From positions 1 to 44,892 of the forward strand of contig MWBJ01000002.1 in assembly GCA_002069525.1 (NCBI GenBank): a stretch of 44,892 nt of DNA. Reading direction: 5' to 3'. This DNA is from Parcubacteria group bacterium ADurb.Bin305 (GTDB lineage Bacteria > Patescibacteriota > Minisyncoccia > UBA6257). Numbering within the stretch: position 1 is the first letter of the stretch; each line of letters starts with the position of its first letter. Positions 6,642 to 41,668 of this stretch are shown piece by piece. The notes beneath the pieces are model-generated. The model searched no databases and had not been told where the DNA came from. It was given only the letters and a program-made list of their open reading frames with translations. Position numbers and translations under genes: made by a program.

Positions 6642-6736
6642 ATATATAAATCCCCTGTTTTATTTAAAGATTTATTCCTTAAGAATCATAATATCACAGT
6701 CAAAGTAATTTTGCAATTCTCTTTAAGCTAAAAATT

Positions 6737-7384
6737 TTAAGGAAAAGCATAGATAACGTTTCTTACTAAAGTTGATTTTTGACCTAATTGATTTATAGCT
6801 ATAAATTCTAACTGGTTTAATCCGGGTTTTAAAATAATTTCTTCCTTAAACGCTTTTGATTCATCAATTAAAATCGGCTGATTGTTTAATAATAAACTTT
6901 TGGCTCGAATTGCTTTTCCTTGAACCAATAACGTGCCTTTATTAGTATTTAAATCCGCACGAGGTGATTCTAAAATAATTTTAGGGGGCAAGATTAACAT
7001 AGCTAACTCATAAATTAAATAACTACTGACTAGTATCAAAACAAGACTCTTAGATAAAATGATTAAAATATTTCTTAATTGACTAAATAAAGAGATTGAC
7101 CGATGATCGCTTATCGGCACCAAAGATTGATCTTGCTGGGCAACAAATTCATTGGAGTTTTTATATAAATTAATTAATTCTTTATAGTTTAAACCTAAAA
7201 CTTGAGCATATTTTTGAATCGCACCTTTTAGGTAAATGCTGGGTAAAGCATCGTAATCATCTTCTTCCAAAGCCTTTAAGCCGGCTATTGGAATTTTTGT
7301 CTCTTTATGAATTCTTTCCAAATCCCAACCTTTTTCCCGTCTAGTGTGGGATAATATTTGACCTATTGTTTCCTTATACTCCAT
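6737..7384 (-). CDS. RodZ-like HTH membrane protein
   Basis: N-terminal Xre-type HTH (IGQILSHTRREKGWDLERIHKETKIPIAGLKALEEDDY), a central TM helix and a C-terminal extracytoplasmic domain. Confidence 0.55.
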   Translation of the reverse strand: MEYKETIGQILSHTRREKGWDLERIHKETKIPIAGLKALEEDDYDALPSIYLKGAIQKYAQVLGLNYKELINLYKNSNEFVAQQDQSLVPISDHRSISLFSQLRNILIILSKSLVLILVSSYLIYELAMLILPPKIILESPRADLNTNKGTLLVQGKAIRAKSLLLNNQPILIDESKAFKEEIILKPGLNQLEFIAINQLGQKSTLVRNVIYAFP

Positions 7385-8261: not shown

Positions 8262-8621
8262 TCAACGAGGGTCAATTTTTAAACCATCACCAAATCGTCG
8301 AGGAATAATATGAATATGAGGCCGATGAGGTATTCCTGATTGAGCAGCTTCACCTTGATTAATTAATAAATTATAGCCATCGGTTTTTATTTCTGCCATT
8401 TGTTTTTCAGCTAATTGGCGCGCCAAACTTAATAATTTTTGCCATTCTAGTTCAGGCATTTCTTGAATATCATTATAATGATTCTTTGAAAAAAGTACTA
8501 AATGTCCATTACTGATAGGAGCTTTATCAAAAATAGCGAGAAAATTGTCGTCTTCGTAATATTTTTGAGCAGCTATTTCTCCCTTAATAATTTTACAGAA
8601 AATACAATTAGAATTTAACAT
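8262..8621 (-). CDS. HIT-family nucleotide hydrolase/transferase
   Basis: Histidine triad HRPHIHIIPR and N-terminal CIFCKII. Ends in TGA, verified by hand at 8262-8264. Confidence 0.85.
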   Translation of the reverse strand: MLNSNCIFCKIIKGEIAAQKYYEDDNFLAIFDKAPISNGHLVLFSKNHYNDIQEMPELEWQKLLSLARQLAEKQMAEIKTDGYNLLINQGEAAQSGIPHRPHIHIIPRRFGDGLKIDPR

Positions 8622-9856: not shown

Positions 9857-11401
9857 TTAATACTGAGTATTTAGTCCTCCTGACCGGTCCACCCTGACAG
9901 GTTCAGTATCAACTGGATGTGGTGGTTTTTGGGTAGGAGGAGGCATTATTGACCACTTATCTATTCCCCAGTCCCTACTACGAGTAGGGTCAAAAGTGGT
10001 AGAGGGAGAGGGAGATTGGGTAGTGGTAGGGCTGGGATTATCACCGGGTACAGGATCGTCATCAACAGGAGGGGTTGTTAAAGGCGTGACTACGCCTCCT
10101 CGTTTTGGGCTCATCCAAGGCAATCTGGAAGAATTCAGAAAAATATTACTGTTCAAAATTCTTTGAAATAGGTTGCTTACTGCCGCTATTAAATTTGCTG
10201 GAAAACGCGCCGAAGAATTATAGGTTTGTCTGCCTCCACGAATAGTAGAAGTAACTTTTATGAATTTAGTAGTAGTAGTGGTGGGTTTAGTAGTGGTAGT
10301 GGGTTTAGGTTTAGTAGTGGTAGTGGGTTTAGTAGTGGTTGCGGTACAACTCGAACTACTATCACACTTCTTATAACCATGCTGCTCAGGAAAACAACTC
10401 ATAAAGTGTTCAGGATAAGGATAGGTCTGATAAAGATGATGATGAGGGCAACCACTAAATATAAACTTAGCCTCTGTGCCATCAAAATATAAACTAGAAT
10501 AAAGAGGACATTTCCCATGATTCATGTTGTACAAAATGCTTAAATAATCTTTTCCTAATTTGTTAATTATTCCATAAAGATAAGATCGCGTTTGCGCATT
10601 CTTTTGTTTATTAATAACCTCGTTAACACAATCCTTTGTGTAGACCTCGACAGTTTTACACATAGTTTTGAAGGAACTGCTAAATAAATCTTTTAATGGT
10701 TTTAAAACTAATTTATTAAACTGTTCATCTTTAAAATAACCACAATAACTATATTTTTTTTCTTCAGCGAACAGGTTGTTTAAATAATCATAATTCATAT
10801 TTTTATACCTATCAGAAATCACAGCTGAACCGCATTGCTTACTACCTCTAACGTGCGCAATTAGATATTCATCACAATGACCATGATCAACATCCTCTAT
10901 GGTTGAGTCGCATCTACAAAGTTCACTATTCCAATAACAATTAGCTCGAGAAGTATATAAAGCCTGACACAGTGTACCAACGCATCCTCGAGCTGTAAAG
11001 GGACACTCCTCGCACTTACGAGCAGCACAATATATCGTGGTGGTAGTGGTACTGGTGGACACAGGTTTAGTAGTAGTCGTGGGTTTTTTAGTAGTGCTGG
11101 TTGACGCAGGCTTGGTAGTAGGACGACTCAGCGATATCCCTGTCCTCGACCCAAATCTTGGATCCTTGGTAGTAGTGGTAGAAAGAATCCCGGCATTAGG
11201 ACCCATTATTTCTGGCTGACCGCAGGCTTGTAAACATTCTTCTAGGGTGGCAAATTGAGCGCCGGTATTTACTGGAACACACTGAAAGTTTTCATTACAA
11301 TTATAACCTACCATAACTTGCGCCTGCCCTATCTCAATTGGCGGAATCAAGATTCCTGTAATAATTAGGATTATTATTAGAGTAAAAAAATCATTTTTCA
11401 T
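9857..11401 (-). CDS. secreted cysteine-rich protein with Thr/Pro-rich linkers
   Basis: N-terminal hydrophobic signal/anchor (FFTLIIILIITGILIPP), a small 4-Cys module, two TTTKP-type low-complexity linkers, a central Cys-rich domain and a Pro-rich C-terminus. No family recognised. Confidence 0.7.
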   Translation of the reverse strand: MKNDFFTLIIILIITGILIPPIEIGQAQVMVGYNCNENFQCVPVNTGAQFATLEECLQACGQPEIMGPNAGILSTTTTKDPRFGSRTGISLSRPTTKPASTSTTKKPTTTTKPVSTSTTTTTIYCAARKCEECPFTARGCVGTLCQALYTSRANCYWNSELCRCDSTIEDVDHGHCDEYLIAHVRGSKQCGSAVISDRYKNMNYDYLNNLFAEEKKYSYCGYFKDEQFNKLVLKPLKDLFSSSFKTMCKTVEVYTKDCVNEVINKQKNAQTRSYLYGIINKLGKDYLSILYNMNHGKCPLYSSLYFDGTEAKFIFSGCPHHHLYQTYPYPEHFMSCFPEQHGYKKCDSSSSCTATTTKPTTTTKPKPTTTTKPTTTTTKFIKVTSTIRGGRQTYNSSARFPANLIAAVSNLFQRILNSNIFLNSSRLPWMSPKRGGVVTPLTTPPVDDDPVPGDNPSPTTTQSPSPSTTFDPTRSRDWGIDKWSIMPPPTQKPPHPVDTEPVRVDRSGGLNTQY

Positions 11402-14469: not shown

Positions 14470-15201
14470 TTAAGATAAAATTTTGTCTAAGTTTCCATCC
14501 AGCACATCTTCCACGCAAGAATATTTTTTACCAGTGCGCTCATCGCGTATCATTTTATACGGATGAAGAATATAAGAACGAATTTGATTACCCCATTCAA
14601 TTTTAACTTTCTCACCTTTCAATTCTTTTAAAGTTTTTACCTGCTGTTCTTCAGCCAACTTATGTAATTTTGACCTTAACACCATTAACGCTTTTTCTTT
14701 ATTCTGAGCTTGCGTTCTGTCTTCCTGAGAAGTCACCACTAAACCAGTTGGTTTATGCCGAACTCTAACCCCGGTTTCTACTTTCTGGACATTTTGACCT
14801 CCCGGACCTGAAGCTCTAAAGTAAGTAATTTCTAAATCTTCTTCAGAAAGAGGTAATTCTTTAAAACTAATTACCGGCAAAACTTCTACTAAGGCAAAAG
14901 AGGTATGACGTAATTTGGCAGCTGAAAATGGAGAAATACGCACTAACCGATGCACCCCATTTTCTTGCTTTAACAATCCATAAGCGCCTTGACCAGAAAT
15001 TTGACTAAGAGCTTTATTAAGACCACCCCTCGCATTAACTTGTTTTTCTATAAGTTGAAATTTTAGCCCCTTTTTTTCGCAAAAACGTTGGTACATTCTT
15101 AAAAGCATAGCCGCCCAATCTTCAGCATCTATCCCACCAGCTCCAGCATAAATTGAAAGTGTAGCCTCTCTCTCGTCGTAATTATTAGATTCTTTAATCA
15201 T
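14470..15201 (-). CDS. prfB: peptide chain release factor 2 lacking N-terminal domain 1 (243 aa)
   Basis: SPF tripeptide (RISPFSAAKLRHTSFA) and GGQ ([15 protein letters not shown]) are present. LSIYAGAGGIDAEDWA aligns with E. coli RF2 at about residue 125. The codon just 5' of the ATG is TAA. Confidence 0.8.
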   Translation of the reverse strand: MIKESNNYDEREATLSIYAGAGGIDAEDWAAMLLRMYQRFCEKKGLKFQLIEKQVNARGGLNKALSQISGQGAYGLLKQENGVHRLVRISPFSAAKLRHTSFALVEVLPVISFKELPLSEEDLEITYFRASGPGGQNVQKVETGVRVRHKPTGLVVTSQEDRTQAQNKEKALMVLRSKLHKLAEEQQVKTLKELKGEKVKIEWGNQIRSYILHPYKMIRDERTGKKYSCVEDVLDGNLDKILS

Positions 15202-15461
15202 TTATAAATCGTTAGCGCTTAAATTTAACCTGTATTTATCTTTATTTATCCTAATTAATATTTTAGCAAAAAATACTTTATTTAGCAACCCTCGTCCTCT
15301 AAAATATAAGTGAAATGGTATTTGATAGCATATTTAAATGTAAATGAAATAAAATCAGGTAAAACAGGAAAAATAGAATAATGGTCTCGAAAGACAAAAT
15401 CATAACCATAATTCTTAATTCTTGATTCTTAATTCATCGTTGGCTATTGGTCATTTATTAT

Positions 15462-15590
15462 GGATCACCCTGAACGAAGTGAAGGATCTCCTTGTTTTGG
15501 TTATTCTGAACGAAGCGAAGGATTTCTTTGTCCGGTCATCCTGAGCCGTAGGCGAAGGATTTTTATCCTGAGCCTAGTCGAAGGATCTCT
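15462..15590. repeat. four tandem degenerate copies of a short hairpin repeat (core TCCTGAxC...GAAGGATyT)
   Basis: Units at 15462-15490, 15501-15527, 15535-15564 and 15565-15590, each with ATCCT/AGGAT-type self-complementary ends. The array is followed by palindrome CTCGCGCATGCGAG. Confidence 0.7.
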
Positions 15591-15619
15591 CGCGCATGCG
15601 AGCTTCCTTTTAAAAGGTA

Positions 15620-15730
15620 TCTGAGACCAGATTAGAGATTCTTCAATTAACGACTTACGATGTCGTTAATTTATTTTTCAAGAAGTTTCTGAGACCAGCC
15701 CAGAGATTCTTCGCTCTACCCAGAATGACA
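15620..15730. repeat. two direct copies of TCTGAGACCAGnnnAGAGATTCTTC flanking a perfect 10-bp hairpin
   Basis: Copies at 15620-15644 and 15688-15712 (the second extends into GCTCTACCCAGAATGACA). The hairpin AATTAACGAC-ttacgat-GTCGTTAATT at 15645-15671 is followed by TATTTTT on the plus strand. Confidence 0.65.
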
Positions 15731-15773
15731 GAATTATCGAAAACAAAAGGCTGCTACTAGAAAACCCCTAGAT

Positions 15774-15808
15774 AAAAAAACCACCTTATCCATTACGATT
15801 TAAGGTGG
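15774..15808 (-). terminator. intrinsic terminator after the phosphatase-like gene
   Basis: CCACCTTA / TAAGGTGG stem with a 12-nt loop, 13 nt past the stop at 15821. Followed on the minus strand by a 7-U run (A7 at 15774-15780). Confidence 0.7.
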
Positions 15809-15820
15809 TTATTTTTAATC

Positions 15821-17981: not shown

Positions 17982-19826
17982 TTAATAATAATATATTTTC
18001 GTAGCTAACTGAGGATATTTTTTCTGAAGAAATTCTACACTGAGACGATCCAGATTCTTAATATAAATAAAACCTCCTATTGATTCTGGTAAGGTAAGAC
18101 CTTGGGCAGAAGTAAGATTTCTAAGATAAAGAGAACCTCCTATTGATTCTGGTAAGGTAAGACCTTGGGCAGAGGTAAGACTACTAAGGTAAAGATTACC
18201 TCCTATTGATTTGGGTAAGGTAAGATCGTGGACAGAGGTAAGGCTATCAAGACTAAGATAGCCTCCTATTGATTCTGGTAAGGTAAGACCTTGGGCAGAG
18301 GTAAGACTACTAAGATCAAGATAGCCTCCTATTGATTCTGGTAAGGTAAGATCTTGGGCAGAGGTAAGACTACTAAGGTAAAGATTACCTTCTATTGATT
18401 TGGGGAAGGTAATATCTTGGGCCGAGGTAAGGCTATCAAGGCTAAGAGAACCTCCTATTGATTCTGGTAAGGTAAGACCTTGGGCAGAGGTAAGGTCACT
18501 AAGATCCAGATCGCCGTAGTGATAGATAATACCTCCTGCCAAAGCTTCTTCTTTAGTTAGACTAATTTCTTCTTCTTTACAACCTAAAACAAAAGCTAAA
18601 TCTGATTTAATATGGCGTTGCTGTCTGATTTCTTCTATTCTAGGATCTGCCTGCCAACCAAAACCCTCAATAGGAGAATCAATTTCATAAAGGAACCTTA
18701 GGTCTTCTTTAGTAAGCTCTAACCCTTGCTGATGTTTTTTCTCTATCTCAGTAAGGTATTTCATGTCTTGGCTCTTTTTTTGATACTTCTTTCCTTCTTC
18801 ACCAAATTCTTCAAGTTTTTTGGATAAAATATCAGTTTGAGCAATAATATGATCAAGATTCTGTTCATGAGCAATGCCTCTAATTTCTCCTATTCTATTA
18901 CAACCATCCATTCTGATAGCAATTCTAGGAACAGTGGGCTGACCATTTTGGTCGTAAGAATAGTAAACATAAAAATCACCTTGCTGAAGTTGATGTTGAG
19001 CAGTACTTTCTCCAGCAGTACACCAACCAGTAGACCAACCTTGTAAAGACTCAACTAAAGGAGTTGGGTCAGAACCCTGAGGATATTTTCTCCATTCTCC
19101 TTTAGTTTCTAAGAGTTCTTGTCCTTTAGTAGGGCCGACTTTTTCTAAAGCCCAAGCATAGAGTTTACCAAAATTAGCTTCTTTAAGAAGTTTCTTAAAC
19201 TCTGGATTATCCTCTTCTAAGGGAAGGTGTTCTTGGTTGGCTTTCTTAATAACAGCATCTAAGACATAGGCTAAAGCTTCTCTGTTTAAGTCAGGAAAAG
19301 GAGCTACAGTGGACTTATCTCGTTTAGCAAACATGTGCTTTTCTTTATCATAAACAGACAATTTAGTCATACCCTTAAAAGCCCAATATTTAGCCCACAT
19401 GGGGAAACTATCAGACAGAGGGGACAGAAAATAATCTAACCATAAATCTAAGGTTGCTTGTTGGTCTGCCCTGATAATTTCTGCAGCTTGCTGACGCATT
19501 TCTTGAGTAATTTCAATCTCTCCATAACCCTGCTCTCGAGCCAGTCTTCTTTGAGCCTCAAAATAACTATCAGGAATATCTTCTGGTTTGATAATATATT
19601 CCCGATGGTAGTATTCTTTGATTCTAGCTATTACTTCAGGATCATTCCGATGGCTTAAATGTGTTCTTTCTAACAGAGTCAGCCAATCAGTAATTTCCTT
19701 AGCTGGTTTCTGGGAGATTTCTACCCCTGATCTCTTTAATCTTTCTTGTTCATGCTGTACTGGTTCTGATTTATGAAGTTCTGGATTCTGTTTATGTAAA
19801 AATTGCCCTCCTGCATCTTCAAACAT
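17982..19826 (-). CDS. large hypothetical protein with seven C-terminal 21-aa leucine-rich-type repeats
   Basis: 614 aa with an unrecognised helical N-terminal region and a conserved-looking block GWSTGWCTAGESTAQHQLQQGDFYVYY...RIAIRMDGCNRIGEIRGIAHEQN. It ends in 7 repeats of L-x-SLTSAQGLTLPESIGGxLxL. Confidence 0.7.
   Translation of the reverse strand: MFEDAGGQFLHKQNPELHKSEPVQHEQERLKRSGVEISQKPAKEITDWLTLLERTHLSHRNDPEVIARIKEYYHREYIIKPEDIPDSYFEAQRRLAREQGYGEIEITQEMRQQAAEIIRADQQATLDLWLDYFLSPLSDSFPMWAKYWAFKGMTKLSVYDKEKHMFAKRDKSTVAPFPDLNREALAYVLDAVIKKANQEHLPLEEDNPEFKKLLKEANFGKLYAWALEKVGPTKGQELLETKGEWRKYPQGSDPTPLVESLQGWSTGWCTAGESTAQHQLQQGDFYVYYSYDQNGQPTVPRIAIRMDGCNRIGEIRGIAHEQNLDHIIAQTDILSKKLEEFGEEGKKYQKKSQDMKYLTEIEKKHQQGLELTKEDLRFLYEIDSPIEGFGWQADPRIEEIRQQRHIKSDLAFVLGCKEEEISLTKEEALAGGIIYHYGDLDLSDLTSAQGLTLPESIGGSLSLDSLTSAQDITFPKSIEGNLYLSSLTSAQDLTLPESIGGYLDLSSLTSAQGLTLPESIGGYLSLDSLTSVHDLTLPKSIGGNLYLSSLTSAQGLTLPESIGGSLYLRNLTSAQGLTLPESIGGFIYIKNLDRLSVEFLQKKYPQLATKIYYY
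18063..18509 (-). repeat. seven tandem 63-bp coding repeats
   Basis: The string CCTCCTATTGATTCTGGTAAGGTAAGACCTTGGGCAGAGGTAAG recurs with few substitutions at 63-bp spacing inside the 3' end of the 614-aa gene. Confidence 0.85.
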
Positions 19827-20266: not shown

Positions 20267-21787
20267 TTAAAATGTCAACATTAATGAAAAATTAATTCTA
20301 TTACCAGATTGCAGAACTGTCTCCGGCGGTATTTTACTAGAAACGAATAATTGAGTTTCATCTAAGCTTTTTTTAAAATTAGTCATTGCCTCTCTTGATG
20401 GTGCCTCGGCTTGAATAGTTATATTGCTAATTAATTCTTCTGTTCCACTCCCTACAAAAATTCTCTTAATATTAACAGTTTCTTGTCTAGCCTTTTGAAA
20501 AATAGTATCTAATACCAATTTCCAATCTTTTTTCCATTGAGTGGTAAATTTAGCATACTCGACTAAAACATTAAACCATTCTGCTTCTTTCTGTAATGCT
20601 TCTTTTTGCGATTTTATACTAGGATCTACACTAACAGCTGCTAATTCTTTATATTTAGCGCTAATATTATTAAAAAATAAATGATTCAATAATATACAAG
20701 TTACTAATAAACAGCTTAAAGCTACTATAACCGAATTAGACCATAAAGCCACAACTCGCGTTATTAAACTTTGATAATAACTCTCTTCGGTTCCCAAAGG
20801 CGCTAAACTGACTATTGAATCTTCTCTTCGAGGAATTAAACCTCTTAAAGCCGCCCCAATTACACCAGCCCAATCTCGCCTCGTGCGCGCTAATGGCTGA
20901 GGTAAATTAAAATTTAAAGCTGTTAAATTATATTGTTTAGCTAACCAGAAAGTCAAGGTATTAACCATTCTCTCATCACTACTTAAAACAATAAAACGCT
21001 CTAAAGAATGACCTCTTTTCAAAGAGTAAAAGTTTAAAATCAAAGGAATTTCCCGCATTAAATGCTGCTGTAAATGGTTTAAAGTAATAGTTTTTGGAAT
21101 ATTTTGTCCAAAAATTTCCTGCCAAGAATCATAATCAAAGTAAATTAACTTATTCTGTTCTGTCACGATAAACTCCAAACCATCTACCCGAAGATCAATT
21201 ACCAGCACTGGTTTTTCTTTCTCCAAGAAGGTGTAAACAAAGCGCGAAACGCTAATCGCCCAAGGTTCAATAGCCACCACTTTAAAACCATAATCTTGCA
21301 AAATATCAGTATAGGGTTTAATTTGCCTTTTTATACCTAAAGCAATAAAAATTTCTTTTTCATCCCTGTTTTTATCAATAACTGTTCCCCAATCTTCCCA
21401 GTCAAAATAGGTCTCTTCTAACGGTAAAGGAGCTACCATTTGAGTGTTAAAAACTACCGCGTCCTGAAATTGCTCATCTGTAAGATCTGGCAAAGTAAAA
21501 ATATTGGTATAAAAATTGCTTGAAGGCAACGAAAGAATAAGCCAAATATGCTTATCCTTAGCCCAAATTTTTTGTTTTAAGGCGCCTATTAAAGCTTGAA
21601 ATTCTTCTGGTTTTTTTAAAATTCCATTTTCGATAACTCCGGGAGGTAATTTATATTGACCAATTTTAGCAACTTGATTAATTGTTTGATTGAAACCAAA
21701 AATTCGCAAGCTAAAATCATCAATAACCAACGCAGTAATTGGAAATTCTGGAACTAATAATTTTTGCAAATCAAACTTTTTTGCCAT
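20267..21787 (-). CDS. type IV pilus assembly PilM-like protein fused to a TM plus PilN-like C-terminal region
   Basis: PilM-like blocks (ITALVIDDFSLRIF, YKLPPGVIENGILKKPEEFQALIGAL, VVAIEPWAISVSRF, VLVIDLRVDGLEFIV), then a TM helix (VVALWSNSVIVALSCLLVTCILL) and a coiled region. Confidence 0.5.
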   Translation of the reverse strand: MAKKFDLQKLLVPEFPITALVIDDFSLRIFGFNQTINQVAKIGQYKLPPGVIENGILKKPEEFQALIGALKQKIWAKDKHIWLILSLPSSNFYTNIFTLPDLTDEQFQDAVVFNTQMVAPLPLEETYFDWEDWGTVIDKNRDEKEIFIALGIKRQIKPYTDILQDYGFKVVAIEPWAISVSRFVYTFLEKEKPVLVIDLRVDGLEFIVTEQNKLIYFDYDSWQEIFGQNIPKTITLNHLQQHLMREIPLILNFYSLKRGHSLERFIVLSSDERMVNTLTFWLAKQYNLTALNFNLPQPLARTRRDWAGVIGAALRGLIPRREDSIVSLAPLGTEESYYQSLITRVVALWSNSVIVALSCLLVTCILLNHLFFNNISAKYKELAAVSVDPSIKSQKEALQKEAEWFNVLVEYAKFTTQWKKDWKLVLDTIFQKARQETVNIKRIFVGSGTEELISNITIQAEAPSREAMTNFKKSLDETQLFVSSKIPPETVLQSGNRINFSLMLTF

Positions 21788-29223: not shown

Positions 29224-29832
29224 TTAAACAGCTAACCCTGTCATCAATGTAAATAATTCATCTATCACTGGTTGAATAAAATTCCAACCAAAAAATATAA
29301 CAACTAAAAGCAAAATTGGGCCATACCGGTTTAAAAAAGCTTCCAATTTCCACGAAGGAAAAAGATAAAATAACACCTTCGAACCATCAAGCGGAGGCAA
29401 AGGAATTAAGTTGAAAATAGCGAACATAATACTAATATAAGCCACTAAGGCTAAATACGGAATCATAAAGCTAGGCAAAAAAGGCACAAATCGAATTACC
29501 AGACCAAACAACAAAGCTAATACTAAATTAGCCAAAGGACCAGCTAAAGCAATTAAGCATTGATCTTTTAAGGGATGTTTTAAGTTTAAAGGGTTATAAG
29601 GTACAGGCTTTGCCCAACCAAAAATTAATTTTCCCTCTGTAAATAAATACATCATCAAAGGCAACAAAACAGAACCAAATGGATCTAAGTGGGCTAAAGG
29701 ATTCAAAGTTAAACGCCCCATTTTTTCCGCTGTGTCGTCGCCTAATTCTTTAGCCATCAAGCCATGAGAAACTTCATGGATAATCACTAAAAATACAAAA
29801 ACTATAATTTGGAAAATAACCATAATAAACAA
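29224..29832 (-). CDS. M50-family (site-2 protease-like) membrane metalloprotease
   Basis: HEVSHGLMA HExxH motif within a TM helix, and a distal NLIPLPPLDGSK motif; polytopic. Confidence 0.8.
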   Translation of the reverse strand: MFIMVIFQIIVFVFLVIIHEVSHGLMAKELGDDTAEKMGRLTLNPLAHLDPFGSVLLPLMMYLFTEGKLIFGWAKPVPYNPLNLKHPLKDQCLIALAGPLANLVLALLFGLVIRFVPFLPSFMIPYLALVAYISIMFAIFNLIPLPPLDGSKVLFYLFPSWKLEAFLNRYGPILLLVVIFFGWNFIQPVIDELFTLMTGLAV

Positions 29833-36298: not shown

Positions 36299-37402
36299 TT
36301 AATAGCTTCTTCTTAATCGCTTTTTGGCCTTATAGGTCTCCAGAGCCAAACTAACTAATTTTTCCAAAAGTTTTGGATAGGGTAGTCCTGAAGCCTGCCA
36401 TAATTTTGGATACATACTAATTTCAGTAAAACCGGGAATAGTATTGATTTCACTAGTTATAACCCTTCCGTTTGGTTGAAGGAAAAAATCAACTCTAGCC
36501 ATTCCGGTAACGCCAAGAGCCCGATAAACCTCAAGAGCAATTTTTTGTATCTTTTTGACTGTCTGAAATGGTAAATTAGTCGGTGCCAATAATTTGGCTC
36601 CGGCCGGGTTTAAATATTTGGCAGAATAAGAGTAAAATTCCTCTTGAGGTTGAATCTCTCCCACTAGTGAGCTTTGAGGATTTTCATTCCCTAAAACAGC
36701 ACACTCAACTTCTCGACCCTTGATAAATTTTTCCAAAAGCACTTTGTTGTCATAATCAAAAGCCTTATTAATAGCCCATTTCAATGACGGCTTCTCAAAT
36801 ACTTTAGACACCCCAATCGAAGACCCCAAAGAAGCTGGTTTAACAAATAAGGGAAAACCAAATTTTGTAATTGCTTGCTCAATTTTTTCTCTTCGTTCTT
36901 TTGAGGTGTCAGTATAATTCAAGGTTAATGAAGGAATTACAGGTATCTTTGCTTCCTTCAAAATTTTTTTAAAAAATTCTTTATCCATTCCCAAAGCGGA
37001 AGATAAAACATTGGCACCCACATAAGGCACATTCAAAAGTTCCAAATACCCTTGCAATGACCCATCTTCTCCAAAAGTGCCATGAGTTAATGGAAAAACC
37101 ATTCCTACATTATCTAATATTTTGTTCCTTTCCAAGCTGTAGACTACTGTTTTTCCCCCTCTTTTGATTAAAACTATTTCTTCTTTTTTATTTTTTTTCA
37201 AAAAATATTGTTTTTTTCTTTTCTCCAACAAATCATTAAATTGATAAGCAAAAAACCAATAACCTCTTTTATCAATAATCACTATGGCTTTCCTCCAGAT
37301 TTTACTTTGGAAGTTATTAAAAACAGAATAAAGAGAGCGAATCGAAATTTCATGCTCACTGCTTTCACCGCCACCAATAAAAACCACCAATGGCTTACTC
37401 AT
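36299..37402 (-). CDS. ddl: D-alanine--D-alanine ligase
   Basis: GGESSEHEISIRS N-terminus, an ATP-grasp core (FVKPASLGSSIGVSKV) and C-terminal EINTIPGFT. Its start overlaps the upstream ATPase stop by 8 nt. Confidence 0.9.
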   Translation of the reverse strand: MSKPLVVFIGGGESSEHEISIRSLYSVFNNFQSKIWRKAIVIIDKRGYWFFAYQFNDLLEKRKKQYFLKKNKKEEIVLIKRGGKTVVYSLERNKILDNVGMVFPLTHGTFGEDGSLQGYLELLNVPYVGANVLSSALGMDKEFFKKILKEAKIPVIPSLTLNYTDTSKERREKIEQAITKFGFPLFVKPASLGSSIGVSKVFEKPSLKWAINKAFDYDNKVLLEKFIKGREVECAVLGNENPQSSLVGEIQPQEEFYSYSAKYLNPAGAKLLAPTNLPFQTVKKIQKIALEVYRALGVTGMARVDFFLQPNGRVITSEINTIPGFTEISMYPKLWQASGLPYPKLLEKLVSLALETYKAKKRLRRSY

Positions 37403-39107
37403 TCTTTCCTGTTTGGTTAAAGATATTTTGAATTGTTTCTTTCACTTTGTCATTATGACTAGCTTGGACCTTATGAGTCGCCGACCGGCCAGAAGAATTA
37501 ACAGAAGATTCTCTTCGTAAGTTAGGAGATTTAATAATATCGGCCTGCGATAAATCTTTTAACGACATCGATGGTGCCTCCGGAATGGCTGCTTTTTGCC
37601 TGACATCCAAATTAGCATCTCTCTCGTTAAACCTCAACTCAGCATTTTCTTTTTGTGATTTTAATGACCTAAAGCATTGTTCACAATACACCGGTCTATT
37701 AGGTGCTGGTCTAAAAGGTACCATAATATGCTGACCACATAAACTACATACTGCCTCCCAACCCTCTCTAACTATCCCCTTTTTATTCTTATTAGTTAAA
37801 GCAATATTTTTAGAACCACCGGCCATTTCCGTAAAATCCAACAATTGCCAATAAAAAATTTCTCTTTCTACTTCTTGACTAGGTCGAGCATATTTTTGCC
37901 GGGAAGATTCTATAATTTCCTGCACATAACTTATTTCTGGCAATTTATGAGGAGGAATGTTAACTGCTGAAAAACTTTTAGATAAGATACCATCGATCAT
38001 CAGTTTTATATAAAAAGTAAAATTCGGTAAATTAATTAAATCTGCCTGCATGAACTCTGGGGTAAAATATTCTTCTAATAATTTAGCGTCTTCAGGTCCC
38101 ACTCGAAATGAGATCAAAGTTCCAATATTGCCAAAAATAGCCTCGCGGACTGTATCGGTTAATTGAGCAATATACTGATGAGCCAAAATTAAATTAAGGC
38201 GATACTTTCTAGCCTCAGCAAAAATATTAGCAAAAGAATCTGTAGAAAAATTCTGAAATTCATCCACATAAAGATAAAAATCCTGCCGTTCTTCTTCTGG
38301 TAAATCAACCCGAGTCATAGCTGCTAATTGTAATTTAGTAACCAATAACCCTCCTAGTAAACTTGAGTTGTCTTCCCCAATGATACCCTTAGAAAGATTG
38401 GCTAAAAAAATCTTTTTACTATCCATAATATCGCGAAAATCCAGTCTGGACTCTTTTTGACCAATGATGTTACGAACCAAAGGATTAGAAATAAACTGAC
38501 CAACTTTATTTTGAATAGGCGCCACAGCTTCGGTAGCATAGCGTTCATTATAACGAGTAAACTCCTTTTCCCAAAAAGCTTTTACTACTGGATCAGTAAT
38601 TTTATCAGTCACCACTCGACGATAATCACTATCAGATAACAATCTATTAATCCCTAAAAGAGTAGAACCGGGATACTCCAAGAGGGCTAATAAAGAGTTA
38701 TTTAAAATATATTCCATTCGAGCAGACCAGACGTCAGGCCATAATTTTTTGAAGACACCCATGAGGCCAGAAGCTATTAAATGTCGCCACTCTTTAGGTA
38801 CCTCCTCAATTACATTAAAAGCGATGGGCCAATTAATATCTCCGGGGTTAAAATAAATGACATCGTTTATTCTTTCTTTAGGAATAAAATGCAAGAGACG
38901 ATAAATCAATTCTCCATGAGGATCAATTACCCCTACCCCCTGACCATTTTGAATATCTTGAATAATCATATTTTCCAATAAAGTAGTTTTTCCTACGCCT
39001 GTTTTTCCAATAACATAAGTATGCCGTCGTCTATCGTCTGGCTTAATTCCAAAAGGGTAACTTTGGTCACGAAAATAAGTAATGCCTAAATAAGTAATAT
39101 CTTTCAT
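37395..39107 (-). CDS. soluble VirD4/TraD-like (type IV coupling protein-like) P-loop ATPase with C-terminal zinc ribbon
   Basis: Walker A VIGKTGVGKTT, Walker B-like FYLYVDEFQNF, ARKYRLNLILAHQYIAQL, and C-terminal CSLCGQHIMVPFRPAPNRPVYCEQC. No N-terminal TM helices. Confidence 0.7.
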   Translation of the reverse strand: MKDITYLGITYFRDQSYPFGIKPDDRRRHTYVIGKTGVGKTTLLENMIIQDIQNGQGVGVIDPHGELIYRLLHFIPKERINDVIYFNPGDINWPIAFNVIEEVPKEWRHLIASGLMGVFKKLWPDVWSARMEYILNNSLLALLEYPGSTLLGINRLLSDSDYRRVVTDKITDPVVKAFWEKEFTRYNERYATEAVAPIQNKVGQFISNPLVRNIIGQKESRLDFRDIMDSKKIFLANLSKGIIGEDNSSLLGGLLVTKLQLAAMTRVDLPEEERQDFYLYVDEFQNFSTDSFANIFAEARKYRLNLILAHQYIAQLTDTVREAIFGNIGTLISFRVGPEDAKLLEEYFTPEFMQADLINLPNFTFYIKLMIDGILSKSFSAVNIPPHKLPEISYVQEIIESSRQKYARPSQEVEREIFYWQLLDFTEMAGGSKNIALTNKNKKGIVREGWEAVCSLCGQHIMVPFRPAPNRPVYCEQCFRSLKSQKENAELRFNERDANLDVRQKAAIPEAPSMSLKDLSQADIIKSPNLRRESSVNSSGRSATHKVQASHNDKVKETIQNIFNQTGKNE

Positions 39108-39112
39108 AAAAT

Positions 39113-40381
39113 TTATATAGGTAAATTAGAAGGCGGTTCGCTTTTTCTATAAAGTTGACGACTTAAAGCTGGAGCTTTTACTTTTAGCATGGGGAAATGA
39201 TAGAGAGTAGCCAATTCTTCCATGTTCAAAATGCAAGTTTTAGACGTCAAGCTATGAGTTCTAGCGGCTTGGTAAAAAGTCAGTTTTTTGAATAACAATC
39301 TTCGAGCTTTAAATAATCCTTTATCTATTTCAGTAGTAGCCTCTTTGTTAGCTATAAAACTATTCAAATTTTTAGAAGCAAATTGTTGAAGAAAAGCATA
39401 AAATGAGGAAACTTTAACTTCATTATACTCCTCTTTGGGGGCTAAATACAAGAAGCGAATACCAGTCTCAAAAGCCAATTGACTAATTTTATTATTTATA
39501 GCCTCAATCTTTTCTTTTTCAATAGATGACACGGTCGCCGCAGAACCATCTGGTTTACTAGTCTCCGGCCATTCAGGTAATTTATACCAAGCTACTAATA
39601 AATTGGCAAAAAAAGCGGCTACCCAATCAGCAAAAGTTAGTTTTTTAACAGGGGCTTTTCCTAACAATTTATTTATTTCTTCTTTGGCACTCTCTAAAAA
39701 TTTCTTTTCTTTATCTCCCTCTAAGGGCTTAATTATAATTTGAACTAAAAAAACCTCTCGGGGAGACAAAATTGTAATACTTTCTATAAAGCTAGCCAAG
39801 GGATCTATTCGTTTTTCTTCTTTAACTTCTTCAAAATATGAATAAGTTTTAATAGGAAAATAATCAGATTTTTCTAACACAAATTCACTGCCCCAAAAAT
39901 CTATATTTTTGGTCGGCGCGATTGGTAAAATAGATCCGAAATAATCAGGAACTTCAGTAATTTCTATTTCCGGATAATGAGCATAAAATTGAGACTCTAC
40001 TAAGTATTTATACCCAAATGGTACGCACACAAAAAAATGTACTGTTTGCTCATACCCTAAAATCCCTAAAGTAAGATACCCTTTAGATAAAGCGTGCAGA
40101 CCACTGAATACTTGCGCCATAGCTTTAGGTGTTTGATAAATATCTAAATTAACTTTTATCTCCAAAGTGGTCCATTGTTTTACCTCTTCTTTTTTGGTCT
40201 TAACTATTTTTTGATACCGCAATTTCAACCTAAAATAAAAATAGGCTGAAATAAACAATAATATCAACCACCAAAACTCCCTTATTATTAACTTAAAAAC
40301 TACAAAGCAATAATTAAAAAATAGCCTAAAAAAGGTTATCGCTGACACATTGCCGGAAAAAAGCGACGAAAAAACTTCCAT
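39113..40381 (-). CDS. membrane-anchored protein of unknown function, partner of the ATPase
   Basis: N-terminal hydrophobic segments (FFRLFFNYCFVVFKLII, WWLILLFISAYFYF) followed by a soluble region of about 350 aa. Its stop is 5 nt from the ATPase start. Confidence 0.6.
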   Translation of the reverse strand: MEVFSSLFSGNVSAITFFRLFFNYCFVVFKLIIREFWWLILLFISAYFYFRLKLRYQKIVKTKKEEVKQWTTLEIKVNLDIYQTPKAMAQVFSGLHALSKGYLTLGILGYEQTVHFFVCVPFGYKYLVESQFYAHYPEIEITEVPDYFGSILPIAPTKNIDFWGSEFVLEKSDYFPIKTYSYFEEVKEEKRIDPLASFIESITILSPREVFLVQIIIKPLEGDKEKKFLESAKEEINKLLGKAPVKKLTFADWVAAFFANLLVAWYKLPEWPETSKPDGSAATVSSIEKEKIEAINNKISQLAFETGIRFLYLAPKEEYNEVKVSSFYAFLQQFASKNLNSFIANKEATTEIDKGLFKARRLLFKKLTFYQAARTHSLTSKTCILNMEELATLYHFPMLKVKAPALSRQLYRKSEPPSNLPI

Positions 40382-40393
40382 TATTAAACATTA

Positions 40394-41506
40394 TTAAATC
40401 TCCAAAATTTTAGATTTAGGAGGGTGAACTAATGTGTAATGCTTATCAGGCAGTTTTTTAAAATATTTTTTATTGTGAAGGTTTAAAAATATGGTATTTT
40501 CTTTGGCTAACCTATATTTCTGCACTTCGTTCACAATTTCCTCTTTAGTTAAAGGATGATTAGCGTTAGCCAATACCGCCTTGATGACATCAATAATTTT
40601 ACCCTCTTTGTAACCCCAATCACGCAAAGCATATACCCCCCTTCCTATAAGAACAAAACGAGGATCTTTAATAAGTTCATTATGAACAGTCTGAATTTCT
40701 ACTGATTTAAACCAAGCATCATCACTCGCTAAAGAGGCCCCAGTAATTTTTCTAAGCTCGTTAAGTTGCTTAGCAATCTCAGAAAAATGCATTGGTTTTT
40801 TTTGATGTTTTAGAATTAAATATGCTCTATCTTTCGCTCCGCTAGGATTTATTTCAGACCAACCTAAAAGACCATATTCACCGTAAATATTTCTGCCAAG
40901 GTGCTTATTAATATTTAAATAAGTTTCCACCTCTCTTTTGGAAACTTCCCTTTGTTGCGAAGTCTTAAACCACTCCCAAACGCTTTCTAAATTCTGACTA
41001 GTATTCTGCTGTTTCAAAAAATTTTCTATTAACTTAACATCATTAAGAATATCTTTTTGGGTTCTATTTTTAGTATACCAATAGCTTCTGGTATCTTTAG
41101 TTTCGGGTTGAAAAACAAAGTTAGGATTCAAAAACAGAAGAAAACGTAAAGCCTTAATAGATTGAGAAGATATCTTGAGAATATTTTTAATCTCTTCCAA
41201 CAAATCTGATTCCAGCATTACATAATTATTGTTCTTTAAAATATTAAAGTAAATATCCCAGATTGCAGTTAATTCTCTGGTTGGTTCTCTTTGAGAAAGA
41301 ATTTTTATACTATCGTCGACAATCTGTCGTACTCGCTCCCGAGTAATGTTATATGTTTGGCCAATAGCTTGTAGTGTTTGTAATTGATTATCAACTAAAC
41401 CAAACTTCTTTTTTAAAATATTTTGAGTACGAGAAGGAAAATCTTTTATTAAACTTAAAACTATATCTTTAGGATTCAATTTTGAATTATTGGTAGAAGT
41501 TTCCAT
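40394..41506 (-). CDS. sigma-70 region-4-like HTH protein with two HARE-HTH-like winged-helix modules
   Basis: LKKKFGLVDNQLQTLQAIGQTYNITRERVRQIVDDSIKIL parallels region 4.2 of this window's RpoD. Later MHFSEIAKQL...DPRFVLIGRGVYALRDWGY and PLTKEEIVNEV... resemble the HARE-HTH of the RNAP delta subunit. Confidence 0.6.
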   Translation of the reverse strand: METSTNNSKLNPKDIVLSLIKDFPSRTQNILKKKFGLVDNQLQTLQAIGQTYNITRERVRQIVDDSIKILSQREPTRELTAIWDIYFNILKNNNYVMLESDLLEEIKNILKISSQSIKALRFLLFLNPNFVFQPETKDTRSYWYTKNRTQKDILNDVKLIENFLKQQNTSQNLESVWEWFKTSQQREVSKREVETYLNINKHLGRNIYGEYGLLGWSEINPSGAKDRAYLILKHQKKPMHFSEIAKQLNELRKITGASLASDDAWFKSVEIQTVHNELIKDPRFVLIGRGVYALRDWGYKEGKIIDVIKAVLANANHPLTKEEIVNEVQKYRLAKENTIFLNLHNKKYFKKLPDKHYTLVHPPKSKILEI

Positions 41507-41668
41507 AATATTTGTATGCTGAAAATTAAAAGAGATATTGATAATATTAAAGCAGAACTTCGGTAATAAGTCAAGAGCTTACCATTTGGACGAAATAATA
41601 AAAATTGTTATTTTCACTCAGTTTATGATACAATATACTAGTATATTTCTTTAATTAAATACTACATA

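Follow-up and report, generated by a model that had tools for sequence, protein, structure and literature searches.

Orphan homologues of type IV coupling proteins (T4CPs) are already known from nearly all Patescibacteria. In the survey by Quinonero-Coronel et al. (2025), 5,713 VirD4-type homologues are reported in 2,918 of 3,035 genomes (~96%), 148 of them near virB4, and VirB4 is reported in 2,417 genomes (80%) (PMC12102498). In its accessible part, no partner genes are described for the homologues, and the survey could only suggest that they are 'exapted'. The type IV secretion system (T4SS) locus of Southlakia has been described as devoid of recognisable coupling or relaxase proteins (Wang et al. 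2023; PMC10633639). In pIP501, TraI has been proposed as the anchor of the T4CP TraJ (PMC12857230). In pGO1, the gene order is TrsC (VirB3-like, with a transmembrane (TM) region), TrsD and TrsE (VirB4); TrsD stands alone as a protein and is remotely homologous to the N-terminal portion of VirB4 (PMC12102498). TrsK of pGO1 has no TM segment and its P-loop lies near residue 40, and the TM protein TrsJ is encoded just upstream of it. Here, a stretch of 44,892 nt from Parcubacteria group bacterium ADurb.Bin305 (contig MWBJ01000002.1; the window) was analysed, in which a T4CP-type ATPase is encoded in a cassette together with a membrane protein of the DUF8128 family and a helix-turn-helix (HTH) protein that combines sigma-70 region 4 with four winged helices. 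No description was found in the searchable literature of a VirB4-like DUF8128 anchor, a sigma-4/winged-helix partner, the conserved three-gene order among housekeeping genes or the phage fusions. Literature searches on DUF8128, and on HARE-HTH together with the candidate phyla radiation (CPR), returned nothing, and nothing on T4SS or coupling proteins was found in the Minisyncoccota review and the 2019 CPR protein-family paper.

Conservation of the three-gene cassette

The cassette comprises the first three of four consecutive minus-strand open reading frames (ORFs), which encode proteins of 370, 422 and 570 amino acids (aa) and are followed by ddl:

40394..41506, minus strand: gene 1, 370 aa, sigma-70 region 4 and four winged helices (Pfam, AlphaFold2 model)
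39113..40381, minus strand: gene 2, 422 aa, DUF8128 (PF26449), putative membrane anchor (Pfam on homologues, AlphaFold2 model)
37395..39107, minus strand: gene 3, 570 aa, soluble T4CP-type (VirD4/TrwB/TraD-like) ATPase (Pfam, PDB sequence matches, hhalign)
36299..37402, minus strand: ddl, D-Ala-D-Ala ligase, a mere downstream neighbour outside the conserved module (Pfam)

The intergenic gaps are 12 nt between gene 1 and gene 2 and 5 nt between gene 2 and the ATPase gene, and the end of the ATPase gene shares 8 nt with the beginning of ddl (ATGAGTAA). This tight spacing had been pointed out in an earlier note on the window, and it is confirmed by the ORF coordinates.

A genome-collection scan seeded with DUF8128, with genes called by hmmsearch, yielded 80 loci from Patescibacteria-type metagenome-assembled genomes (MAGs) and the cultured Minisyncoccus archaeiphilus. 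Of 75 loci assessable in each case, 72 have the HTH gene directly before DUF8128 and 67 have the ATPase gene after it, with median gaps across loci of ~50 nt (HTH/DUF8128) and ~40 nt (DUF8128/ATPase). The full order HTH-DUF8128-ATPase on one strand is found in 62 of 70 assessable loci, so that the conservation of gene order across Patescibacteria, which the earlier note had raised as a point to be checked, holds. Three ATPase-seeded contigs of distinct lineages carry Sigma70_r4/HARE-HTH, DUF8128 and ATPase genes in order, and when the HTH protein served as seed, a Doudnabacteria MAG and a further distant contig showed the identical order, which is also present in records named Magasanikbacteria, in several Parcubacteria-group lineages and in Minisyncoccus archaeiphilus.

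The flanks, in turn, are variable. The secD-secF pair directly precedes the cassette, in the same orientation, in ~37 of the 80 loci (L007-L086) and also in L001-L006, L090 and L091, the Doudnabacteria MAG included; this adjacency could have been inherited from an ancestor or could point to a functional tie to protein export. A pgk-DHH-RNaseH-murJ segment follows the cassette in ~13 of the 80 loci, and ddl follows the ATPase gene in one. All neighbours that belong to recognised families are housekeeping genes, and no relaxase or T4SS channel genes were found in those flanks of related loci that were examined. Because the same order recurs while the flanks vary, the cassette is a unit beyond chance, and the three genes form a conserved unit. 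The coupling to ddl claimed in the earlier note did not survive, with secDF upstream and pgk downstream being commoner neighbours; the ddl link is lineage-specific, and the overlap is a local accident of compaction. It could be argued that the three genes are likewise functionally unrelated and packed by compaction, since patescibacterial genomes are dense and the ATPase gene also overlaps the unrelated ddl. This explanation is scarcely credible, however, given an order that is conserved while the flanks change and the fusion of two of the three proteins in phages.

Several further observations were made on the related loci. In Minisyncoccus archaeiphilus PMX.108 (NZ_AP038758.1; L034:7378-10869), the only cultured representative, a 1,164-aa ORF with a prepilin N-terminal methylation motif and a Gly_rich_2 domain stands between DUF8128 and the ATPase gene on the same strand. 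An apparent 1,016-aa DUF8128-ATPase fusion in L081 was rejected as an artefact of 100 N (~6650-6750) read as X. Typical patescibacterial cassettes and flanks are present in L057, L058, L061, L080 and L081 and in many records titled 'uncultured Candidatus Saccharibacteria'; the taxon labels on these loci (Pacearchaeota archaeon, Bdellovibrionales, Gammaproteobacteria, Saccharibacteria) look unreliable.

Domain composition and fused phage homologues

The 570-aa ATPase is divided into three parts:

37848..39044, minus strand: motor domain, residues 22-420 (PHROG 5156, tblastn, alignment conservation)
37665..37769, minus strand: CxxC-x17-CxxC treble-clef zinc ribbon, residues 447-481 (zf_Tbcl_2, TIGR04272)
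37398..37664, minus strand: variable low-complexity C-terminal tail, residues 482-570, whose final 8 nt lie across the start codon of ddl (sequence, alignment)

Walker A (GKTGVGKT, residues 34-41, 38985-39008), Walker B (FYLYVDE, residues 277-283, 38259-38279) and an AHQYIAQL motif are all present. Pfam TrwB_AAD_bind matches residues 23-338 with 46.1 bits (cut-off 20.5) and TraG-D_C matches with 26.5 bits (cut-off 22); T4SS-DNA_transf, at 19.3 bits, stays under its cut-off of 20.1. The best NCBIfam models are SXT TraD and the CD1115 VirD4-like model, the latter aligning residues 24-342, and the scores are far under the equivalog or subfamily cut-offs (SXT_TraD 53.4 vs 366, CD1115 44.4 vs 250); those for TOL TraD (34.4, cut-off 648) and F TraD (17.7, cut-off 521) are also below. 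TrwB and DotL/IcmO are its sole sequence relatives in the PDB. In hhalign, a profile of 36 homologues aligns across the whole ATPase domain of pGO1 TrsK, and the same profile meets the VirB4 homologue TrsE of pGO1 at the P-loop only, as do the NCBIfam VirB4 models. Pfam FtsK_SpoIIIE and Ftsk_gamma gave no match at E<=0.1. From these profile comparisons, the protein can be classified as a T4CP-type member of the FtsK/HerA superfamily. PADLOC also lists a match of residues 26-368 to mad8 of the MADS system (E 6e-15) and weak matches to several HerA defence models, which probably reflect shared superfamily membership.

The family comprises >8,000 homologous clusters (90% identity). Among the matches listed, homologues are about 53-72% identical to the query, and all named ones belong to Patescibacteria, Minisyncoccia or Parcubacteria. 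The aligned relatives, which are 53-71% identical to the window protein, share ~120 invariant columns, including both Walker motifs and four cysteines. As judged from the large family, the high conservation and the invariant Walker motifs, the ATPase is almost certainly catalytically active. The cysteines C454, C457, C475 and C478 form two CxxC pairs, at 454 and 475, within the zinc ribbon (Pfam zf_Tbcl_2, E 1.3e-13; TIGR04272, 51.5 bits). Zinc binding has been shown for this domain type in small proteins of Methanosarcina (PMC12704099).

No hydrophobic segment is found in the ATPase (maximum KD19 1.17), which therefore has no TM segment. Sequence, Pfam and hydropathy thus agree with the earlier note on the coupling-protein-like Walker A/B blocks, the AHQYIAQL motif, the CxxC pair and the missing TM. 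That note had taken the missing anchor as a departure from coupling proteins, and here it has to be amended: the anchor is absent, but this is not unusual for the branch, as pGO1 TrsK with its upstream TM protein and TraI/TraJ of pIP501 illustrate. Because TrsK also lacks a TM segment, its absence is no bar to placing the ATPase in the MPF-FATA branch.

A candidate anchor is the 422-aa protein encoded directly upstream, for which three regions are distinguished:

40187..40342, minus strand: N-terminal hydrophobic helical hairpin, residues 14-65 (hydropathy >1.6 over residues 14-46; model helices 14-35 and 37-65)
39191..40174, minus strand: alpha/beta domain, residues 70-397 (Foldseek PDB/BFVD, hhalign, PHROG 5156)
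39116..39190, minus strand: conserved C-terminal tail (...AP.L.R...KKGEPPxxLP), candidate docking peptide (conservation; pLDDT 62-74)

The protein gave no match in the local Pfam and NCBIfam copies, the former being without the PF26449 model. PF26449 (DUF8128) is precomputed on nearly all listed homologues, including one that is 99% identical to the window protein (P0121), and on the syntenic genes in L001, L005 and L091. An exhaustive HMM search returned 3,962 DUF8128 representative clusters (50% identity, E<=1e-3). In the AlphaFold2 model (pLDDT 89.2, pTM 0.80), the hairpin precedes the alpha/beta domain, and because a basic stretch (RLKLRYQKIVKTKKE) directly follows helix 2 of the hairpin, the soluble domain is predicted by the positive-inside rule to be cytoplasmic. 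Residues P397, R408, P417, L420 and P421 are conserved in the C-terminal tail, which may serve as a docking peptide.

When the DUF8128 model was compared with the PDB by Foldseek, the top 13 matches were all TrwK/VirB4 of the R388 T4SS (E 3.9e-6, prob 1.0, TMq 0.40), and the next were BBE-like oxidases with E >= 0.01. The Foldseek output gives no aligned TrwK residues; the similarity probably concerns the VirB4-specific N-terminal domain, because DUF8128 has no P-loop or Walker motif and no other P-loop ATPase was matched. A sequence-level link to T4SS families was rejected, all profile, hhalign, Pfam and NCBIfam comparisons being negative. Pfam and NCBIfam scans of 55 members (E<=10) returned no match, including to CagE_TrbE_VirB and TIGR00929, the DUF8128 profile showed no T4SS link among PDB sequences, and hhalign against TrsD and TrsE of pGO1 was negative. 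The N-terminal TM helices noticed earlier are found again as a hydrophobic hairpin (~14-65), but the soluble domain then called unrecognised belongs to DUF8128 and is modelled with a VirB4-like fold.

The strongest available evidence that DUF8128 and the ATPase act together comes from Bacillus phages, in which both are fused. Foldseek against viral models (BFVD) matched the DUF8128 model to phage G gp156 (825 aa; E 6e-17, TMq 0.52), the 913-aa 'Msb' protein of phage JL (E 2e-16), a 551-aa protein of phage Slash (E 4e-13) and phage G gp155 (E 5e-7). By tblastn, the window ATPase matches gp156 over residues 24-448 with 28% identity (E 2e-36), together with 47 records of SPO1-like phages (SPO1 gp27.4, CP-51, JL, Shanette, SP-10, CampHawk and others). 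The two regions lie side by side in single phage chains: hmmsearch finds DUF8128 at residues 15-319 (E 5e-25) and the ATPase at 380-786 (E 3.5e-55) of gp156, and at residues 20-306 (E 7e-8) and 419-833 (E 2.4e-28) of SPO1 gp27.4. The DUF8128 profile aligns by hhalign with gp156 residues 16-319 (prob 98.8, E 1.3e-16). In PHROG 5156 (824 positions, no function assigned), ATPase residues 22-418 fall on positions 406-805 (E 9e-61) and DUF8128 residues 100-397 on the complementary positions 76-354 (E 8.5e-7). Because both window proteins map onto single phage chains, their sequences indicate that a protein of two domains has been divided between the two genes; its layout, an N-terminal domain and then a motor, matches that of VirB4. 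The idea in the earlier note that the 422-aa protein is the partner or anchor of a split coupling protein is supported by this single-chain fusion.

The phage loci show some additional features. In phage G, gp153-gp156 (L089:1798-7362) form a small T4SS-like cluster, in which, upstream of gp156, gp153 is a polytopic membrane protein and gp155 has a P-loop at residue 347, a DUF8128/VirB4-like fold and the PHROG label 'terminase large subunit'. In SPO1 (L088:4513-7467), a 73-aa TM protein, gp27.5, is encoded immediately upstream of gp27.4. No function is annotated for gp153-gp156 or gp27.5-gp27.4 in the records or PHROGs.

The 370-aa product of gene 1 is built from five modules:

41291..41473, minus strand: sigma region 4 module, residues 12-72 (TIGR02393, Foldseek, alignment)
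40868..41278, minus strand: winged helices 1 and 2, residues 77-145 and 150-213, without family assignment (AlphaFold2 secondary structure)
40625..40837, minus strand: winged helix 3, residues 224-294, HARE-HTH, like the N-terminal domain of RNA polymerase (RNAP) delta (Pfam, TIGR04567)
40430..40597, minus strand: winged helix 4, residues 304-359, second HARE-HTH/TBPIP-like (TBPIP 22.8 bits, second HARE-HTH stretch, AlphaFold2 model)

Homologues of this protein fall into >6,600 clusters, and the NCBI name for homologues is 'sigma factor-like HTH DNA-binding protein'. Pfam assigns Sigma70_r4 to residues 24-67 and HARE-HTH to two stretches, and the AlphaFold2 model (pLDDT 92.4, pTM 0.82) shows sigma region 4 followed by four winged helices; the two HARE-HTH modules of the earlier note are thus retained as Pfam stretches, but the number of winged helices is four and not two. 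RpoD_Cterm TIGR02393 matches the region 4 module (E 1.8e-10), and Foldseek superposes it on SigA region 4 chains with a root-mean-square deviation (rmsd) of ~1 A at 36-38% identity (0.9-1.1 A and 36-37% for 7kuf_B and 6vvv_F). Homology to region 4 of the RpoD encoded in the window (residues 405-471), which the earlier note called almost superimposable, is confirmed (E 3e-10), although 33% identity over 67 aa falls short of that wording at the sequence level. The motif RFGL...TLxxIG...ITRERVRQI is retained, with T55, R56, E57, R58, R60, Q61 and I62 invariant, and we take it to include the residues that contact the -35 element in primary sigma factors. Winged helix 3 is the best-conserved part of the protein (QTVHNELIKDxRFVLIGRGxYAL; invariant columns T273-L294), and is matched by HARE-HTH (E 1.4e-11) and, over residues 226-297, by TIGR04567 RNAP_delt_lowGC with 56 bits (cut-off 42). 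Whole-chain Foldseek matches include the C-terminal four winged helices of SelB and the tandem winged helices of UFL1/DDRGK1.

Sigma regions 2 and 3 are absent from Pfam matches and the model, in which Sigma70_r4 is the only sigma part and the rest are winged helices. The protein is therefore neither a sigma factor, lacking regions 2 and 3 with which core RNAP and the -10 element are bound, nor delta, lacking an acidic tail. It unites two module types that elsewhere contact RNAP or promoter DNA, and such binding is predicted from its domains and model; the nucleic-acid- or RNAP-binding type proposed in the earlier note agrees with the Pfam, NCBIfam, model and Foldseek results. Whether it belongs to the same machine could be questioned. 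The machine might consist of DUF8128 and the ATPase only, while the HTH protein acts independently as a housekeeping transcription factor, a delta-like accessory subunit of RNAP or a nucleoid protein that is co-transcribed with the operon or regulates it. Regulators are commonly first in the operon they control, no HTH homologue is found near the phage fusion genes, and both the delta-like domain above the TIGR04567 cut-off and region 4 of the primary-sigma type fit a general role at RNAP. Nevertheless, the adjacency of the HTH gene and DUF8128 is at least as tight as that of DUF8128 and the ATPase gene (72/75 and 67/75), is kept in five of seven loci without an adjacent ATPase, and the order persists in distant lineages although the outer flanks vary, so that we regard an independent HTH protein as quite doubtful.

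Genomic surroundings and proposed mechanism

The composition of the window is uniform along the stretch, at ~33% GC. Its ORFs with Pfam matches are all housekeeping genes, namely tsf, rpsB, prfA, ssb, rpsF, recA, tatD, transketolase, ftsEX, a PilM-like gene, tyrS, eno, a Mur ligase, rpoD, dnaG, dgkA, ddl, the LytR-CpsA-Psr (LCP) gene and pth. Seven scanned ORFs have no Pfam match, and the ORFs at 8262-8621 and 29224-29832 lay outside the scan. Among the scanned window ORFs, Pfam found no relaxase, VirB4/6/8, integrase or other T4SS genes, in line with the earlier opinion that a classical conjugation locus is unlikely. Upstream of the cassette lies a candidate regulatory region:

41507..41668, unstranded: intergenic region that separates the cassette from the divergent LytR-CpsA-Psr gene, putative operon promoter (read from sequence)

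On the minus strand, a -35/-10-like pair can be read here, TTGACT (41574-41569) and TTTAAT (41551-41546) with a 17-nt spacer. A consensus promoter scan neither listed this pair nor found promoter-like sites enriched in the region, and the pair is weak evidence for a promoter. A promoter and terminator scan of the region showed no enrichment of regulatory signals, and an Rfam scan gave tRNAs only. Elsewhere in the window (14470-15820), the PCRF domain match of an RF2-like ORF (243 aa) begins at profile position 94, the N-terminal part being missing. About 620 nt without a long ORF precede it, with no canonical CTTTGAC frameshift site and no Rfam match there. Two large minus-strand ORFs without a Pfam match (514 and 614 aa) and a 506-aa protein with a weak PilM_2 match are located at window positions 9857-11401, 17982-19826 and 20267-21787.

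The surroundings bear on the idea that the cassette is an integrated mobile-element remnant or an anti-phage defence system around a HerA/T4CP-like ATPase. This idea could be based on the homologues in Bacillus phages and on the weak PADLOC matches of the ATPase to mad8 (E 6e-15) and HerA and of the HTH protein to MzaA. It is, however, very improbable: the cassette is present as a single copy in a fixed housekeeping context at every locus examined, the conservation of the ATPase is very high (53-72% identity among the matches listed, over thousands of clusters), no integrase, tRNA-flanked island or composition shift is seen, and DUF8128 has no PADLOC match. A mobile-element or phage origin was rejected on account of the uniform composition, the lack of an integrase and only one partial match among IMG/VR viral contigs, and a defence system was rejected in view of the weak PADLOC matches and a genomic context that speaks against it.

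With moderate confidence, we propose that the cassette specifies a machine of three parts, fixed in the chromosome, whose origin lies in the ATPase apparatus of type IV secretion of the Gram-positive (MPF-FATA) type. The hairpin of DUF8128 would insert in the membrane, and its VirB4-like domain would hold the soluble T4CP-type ATPase at the inner membrane face, so that the two proteins might mimic the VirB3-VirB4 layout with a coupling-protein-type motor, which presumably works as a hexamer. The sigma-4/four-winged-helix protein could bind -35-like DNA and/or RNAP and bring a DNA or nucleoprotein substrate to the motor. As a targeting subunit, it would parallel the gamma domain of FtsK, the winged helix of Streptomyces TraB and the relaxosome accessory proteins that act on T4CPs. 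The module would serve a housekeeping function of Patescibacteria and not plasmid or integrative and conjugative element conjugation, and it may serve for export by way of the patescibacterial T4SS, for import, for segregation or to act on transcription complexes. The observations of the earlier note are upheld, and its interpretation as an uncharacterised membrane-associated translocation or sensing module is supported in part.

Several points weigh against a three-part machine of T4SS descent. A YceG/MltG-family gene stands directly after DUF8128, in place of the ATPase gene, in seven of the 80 loci (L064, L066, L067, L068, L070, L084 and L085), five of which keep the HTH gene upstream. A relaxase is absent from the scanned ORFs of the 45-kb window. 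The likeness between DUF8128 and VirB4 is structural (TMq 0.40), with no sequence or profile signal, and no HTH homologue accompanies the phage fusion genes, which leaves synteny to carry the HTH link. A t4cp homologue of Southlakia epibionticum, which may or may not belong to the cassette, is reported to be non-essential, and possible exaptation was raised from this result (PMC12102498). TM7x carries an annotated ftsK (bioRxiv 10.1101/2022.03.25.485537); because of it, a simple replacement of FtsK was set aside as unlikely, TM7x being of a lineage other than that of the window.

It has also been considered whether the cassette provides the coupling protein that is 'missing' from the patescibacterial T4SS, the genes of which lie elsewhere, near the replication origin. 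DUF8128 would then dock the motor on VirB3/VirB6/VirB8 at VirB4-type positions, and effectors or DNA would be fed towards the host cell. T4CPs normally operate with a VirB4-based channel, and the modelled fold of DUF8128 resembles VirB4, which is the subunit docking on VirB3/VirB8. The patescibacterial T4SS falls within MPF-FATA, a class with TM-less T4CPs and separate anchors (PMC12102498; PMC12857230), the T4SS locus of Southlakia is described as having no recognisable coupling protein (PMC10633639), and t4cp genes are often far from virB4 (PMC12102498). In phage G, moreover, the VirB4-like gp155 and the polytopic gp153 adjoin gp156. On the other hand, T4CP homologues occur in more genomes than VirB4 (96% against 80%), only 148 of 5,713 are near virB4, and the Southlakia t4cp is dispensable whereas the T4SS genes are essential (PMC12102498). 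No T4SS gene is found in the window or the flanks examined, and a tightly linked sigma-4/winged-helix protein is unexpected for effector secretion. Taken together, we consider coupling to the T4SS possible but rather unlikely. It is unlikely, too, that the cassette encodes a core machine independent of the T4SS, in which a membrane-tethered T4CP-type motor would be aimed by the sigma-4/delta-like protein at -35-like DNA or RNAP. If this T4SS-independent reading were true, it would represent a new way to couple the chromosome or transcription complexes to the membrane, with DNA segregation or import, or the clearing and recycling of RNAP, as possible uses; such a machine would have nothing to do with conjugation and would have a common origin with a protein family of large Bacillus phages that is itself uncharacterised.

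Much of bacterial diversity is contributed by Patescibacteria, whose conserved genes mostly lack a known function. By the data described here, an orphan ATPase gains a defined setting that consists of an obligate DUF8128 partner, a conserved sigma-4/winged-helix partner, a fixed housekeeping location and fused phage homologues. An annotation puzzle can thereby be turned into a testable question, namely whether the motor is docked on the epibiosis-essential T4SS or belongs to a separate machine that handles DNA or RNAP. In addition, a likely role can be offered for Pfam DUF8128, with its thousands of members, and for PHROG 5156.

Comparison with known systems

The proposed three-part machine is most readily compared with pIP501 TraJ and TraI and with pGO1 TrsK and TrsJ (CD1115), which share with it a soluble VirD4-type ATPase whose P-loop lies ~35-40 residues from the N-terminus and whose gene follows that of a membrane protein (PMC12857230). 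A split coupling protein therefore has a direct precedent within MPF-FATA, to which the patescibacterial T4SS also belongs. The anchor in the window differs in being a 422-aa protein with a large VirB4-like domain, whereas those of pIP501 and pGO1 are small TM proteins of ~150 aa. The window cassette also adds the zinc-ribbon tail and the obligatory sigma-4/winged-helix partner, and it is chromosomal and of housekeeping context, with no relaxase, oriT or T4SS genes nearby. The VirB3-VirB4 pair (TrwM-TrwK of R388) resembles it in a TM hairpin and an alpha/beta domain, in the window probably of the VirB4 N-terminal type, that precede a motor of the FtsK/HerA superfamily. In contrast to VirB3-VirB4 and TrsD, the motor in the window is of the T4CP type, the N-terminal domain and the motor are on separate polypeptides, and DUF8128 shows no similarity to them at the sequence level.

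The phage proteins of PHROG 5156 (G gp156, SPO1 gp27.4, JL, CP-51, Shanette and SP-10) are true homologues with the same order of DUF8128 and then ATPase, at 24-28% identity to the window proteins. They differ in lacking the TM hairpin, the zinc ribbon (no CxxC) and a sigma-4/winged-helix neighbour. The 370-aa protein resembles RNAP delta (RpoE) in winged helix 3, which is above the TIGR04567 cut-off, and the primary sigma factors in region 4 (33-38% identity, rmsd ~1 A). Compared with these, it has neither an acidic tail nor sigma regions 1.2-3, and it carries three further winged helices. In FtsK/SpoIIIE and in Streptomyces TraB, a membrane anchor, a hexameric motor of the FtsK/HerA superfamily and a winged-helix DNA-recognition module are combined. 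The system in the window appears to follow a similar logic but spreads the three functions over three polypeptides, and in place of the FtsK gamma domain its presumed DNA-recognition part consists of sigma region 4 and four winged helices.

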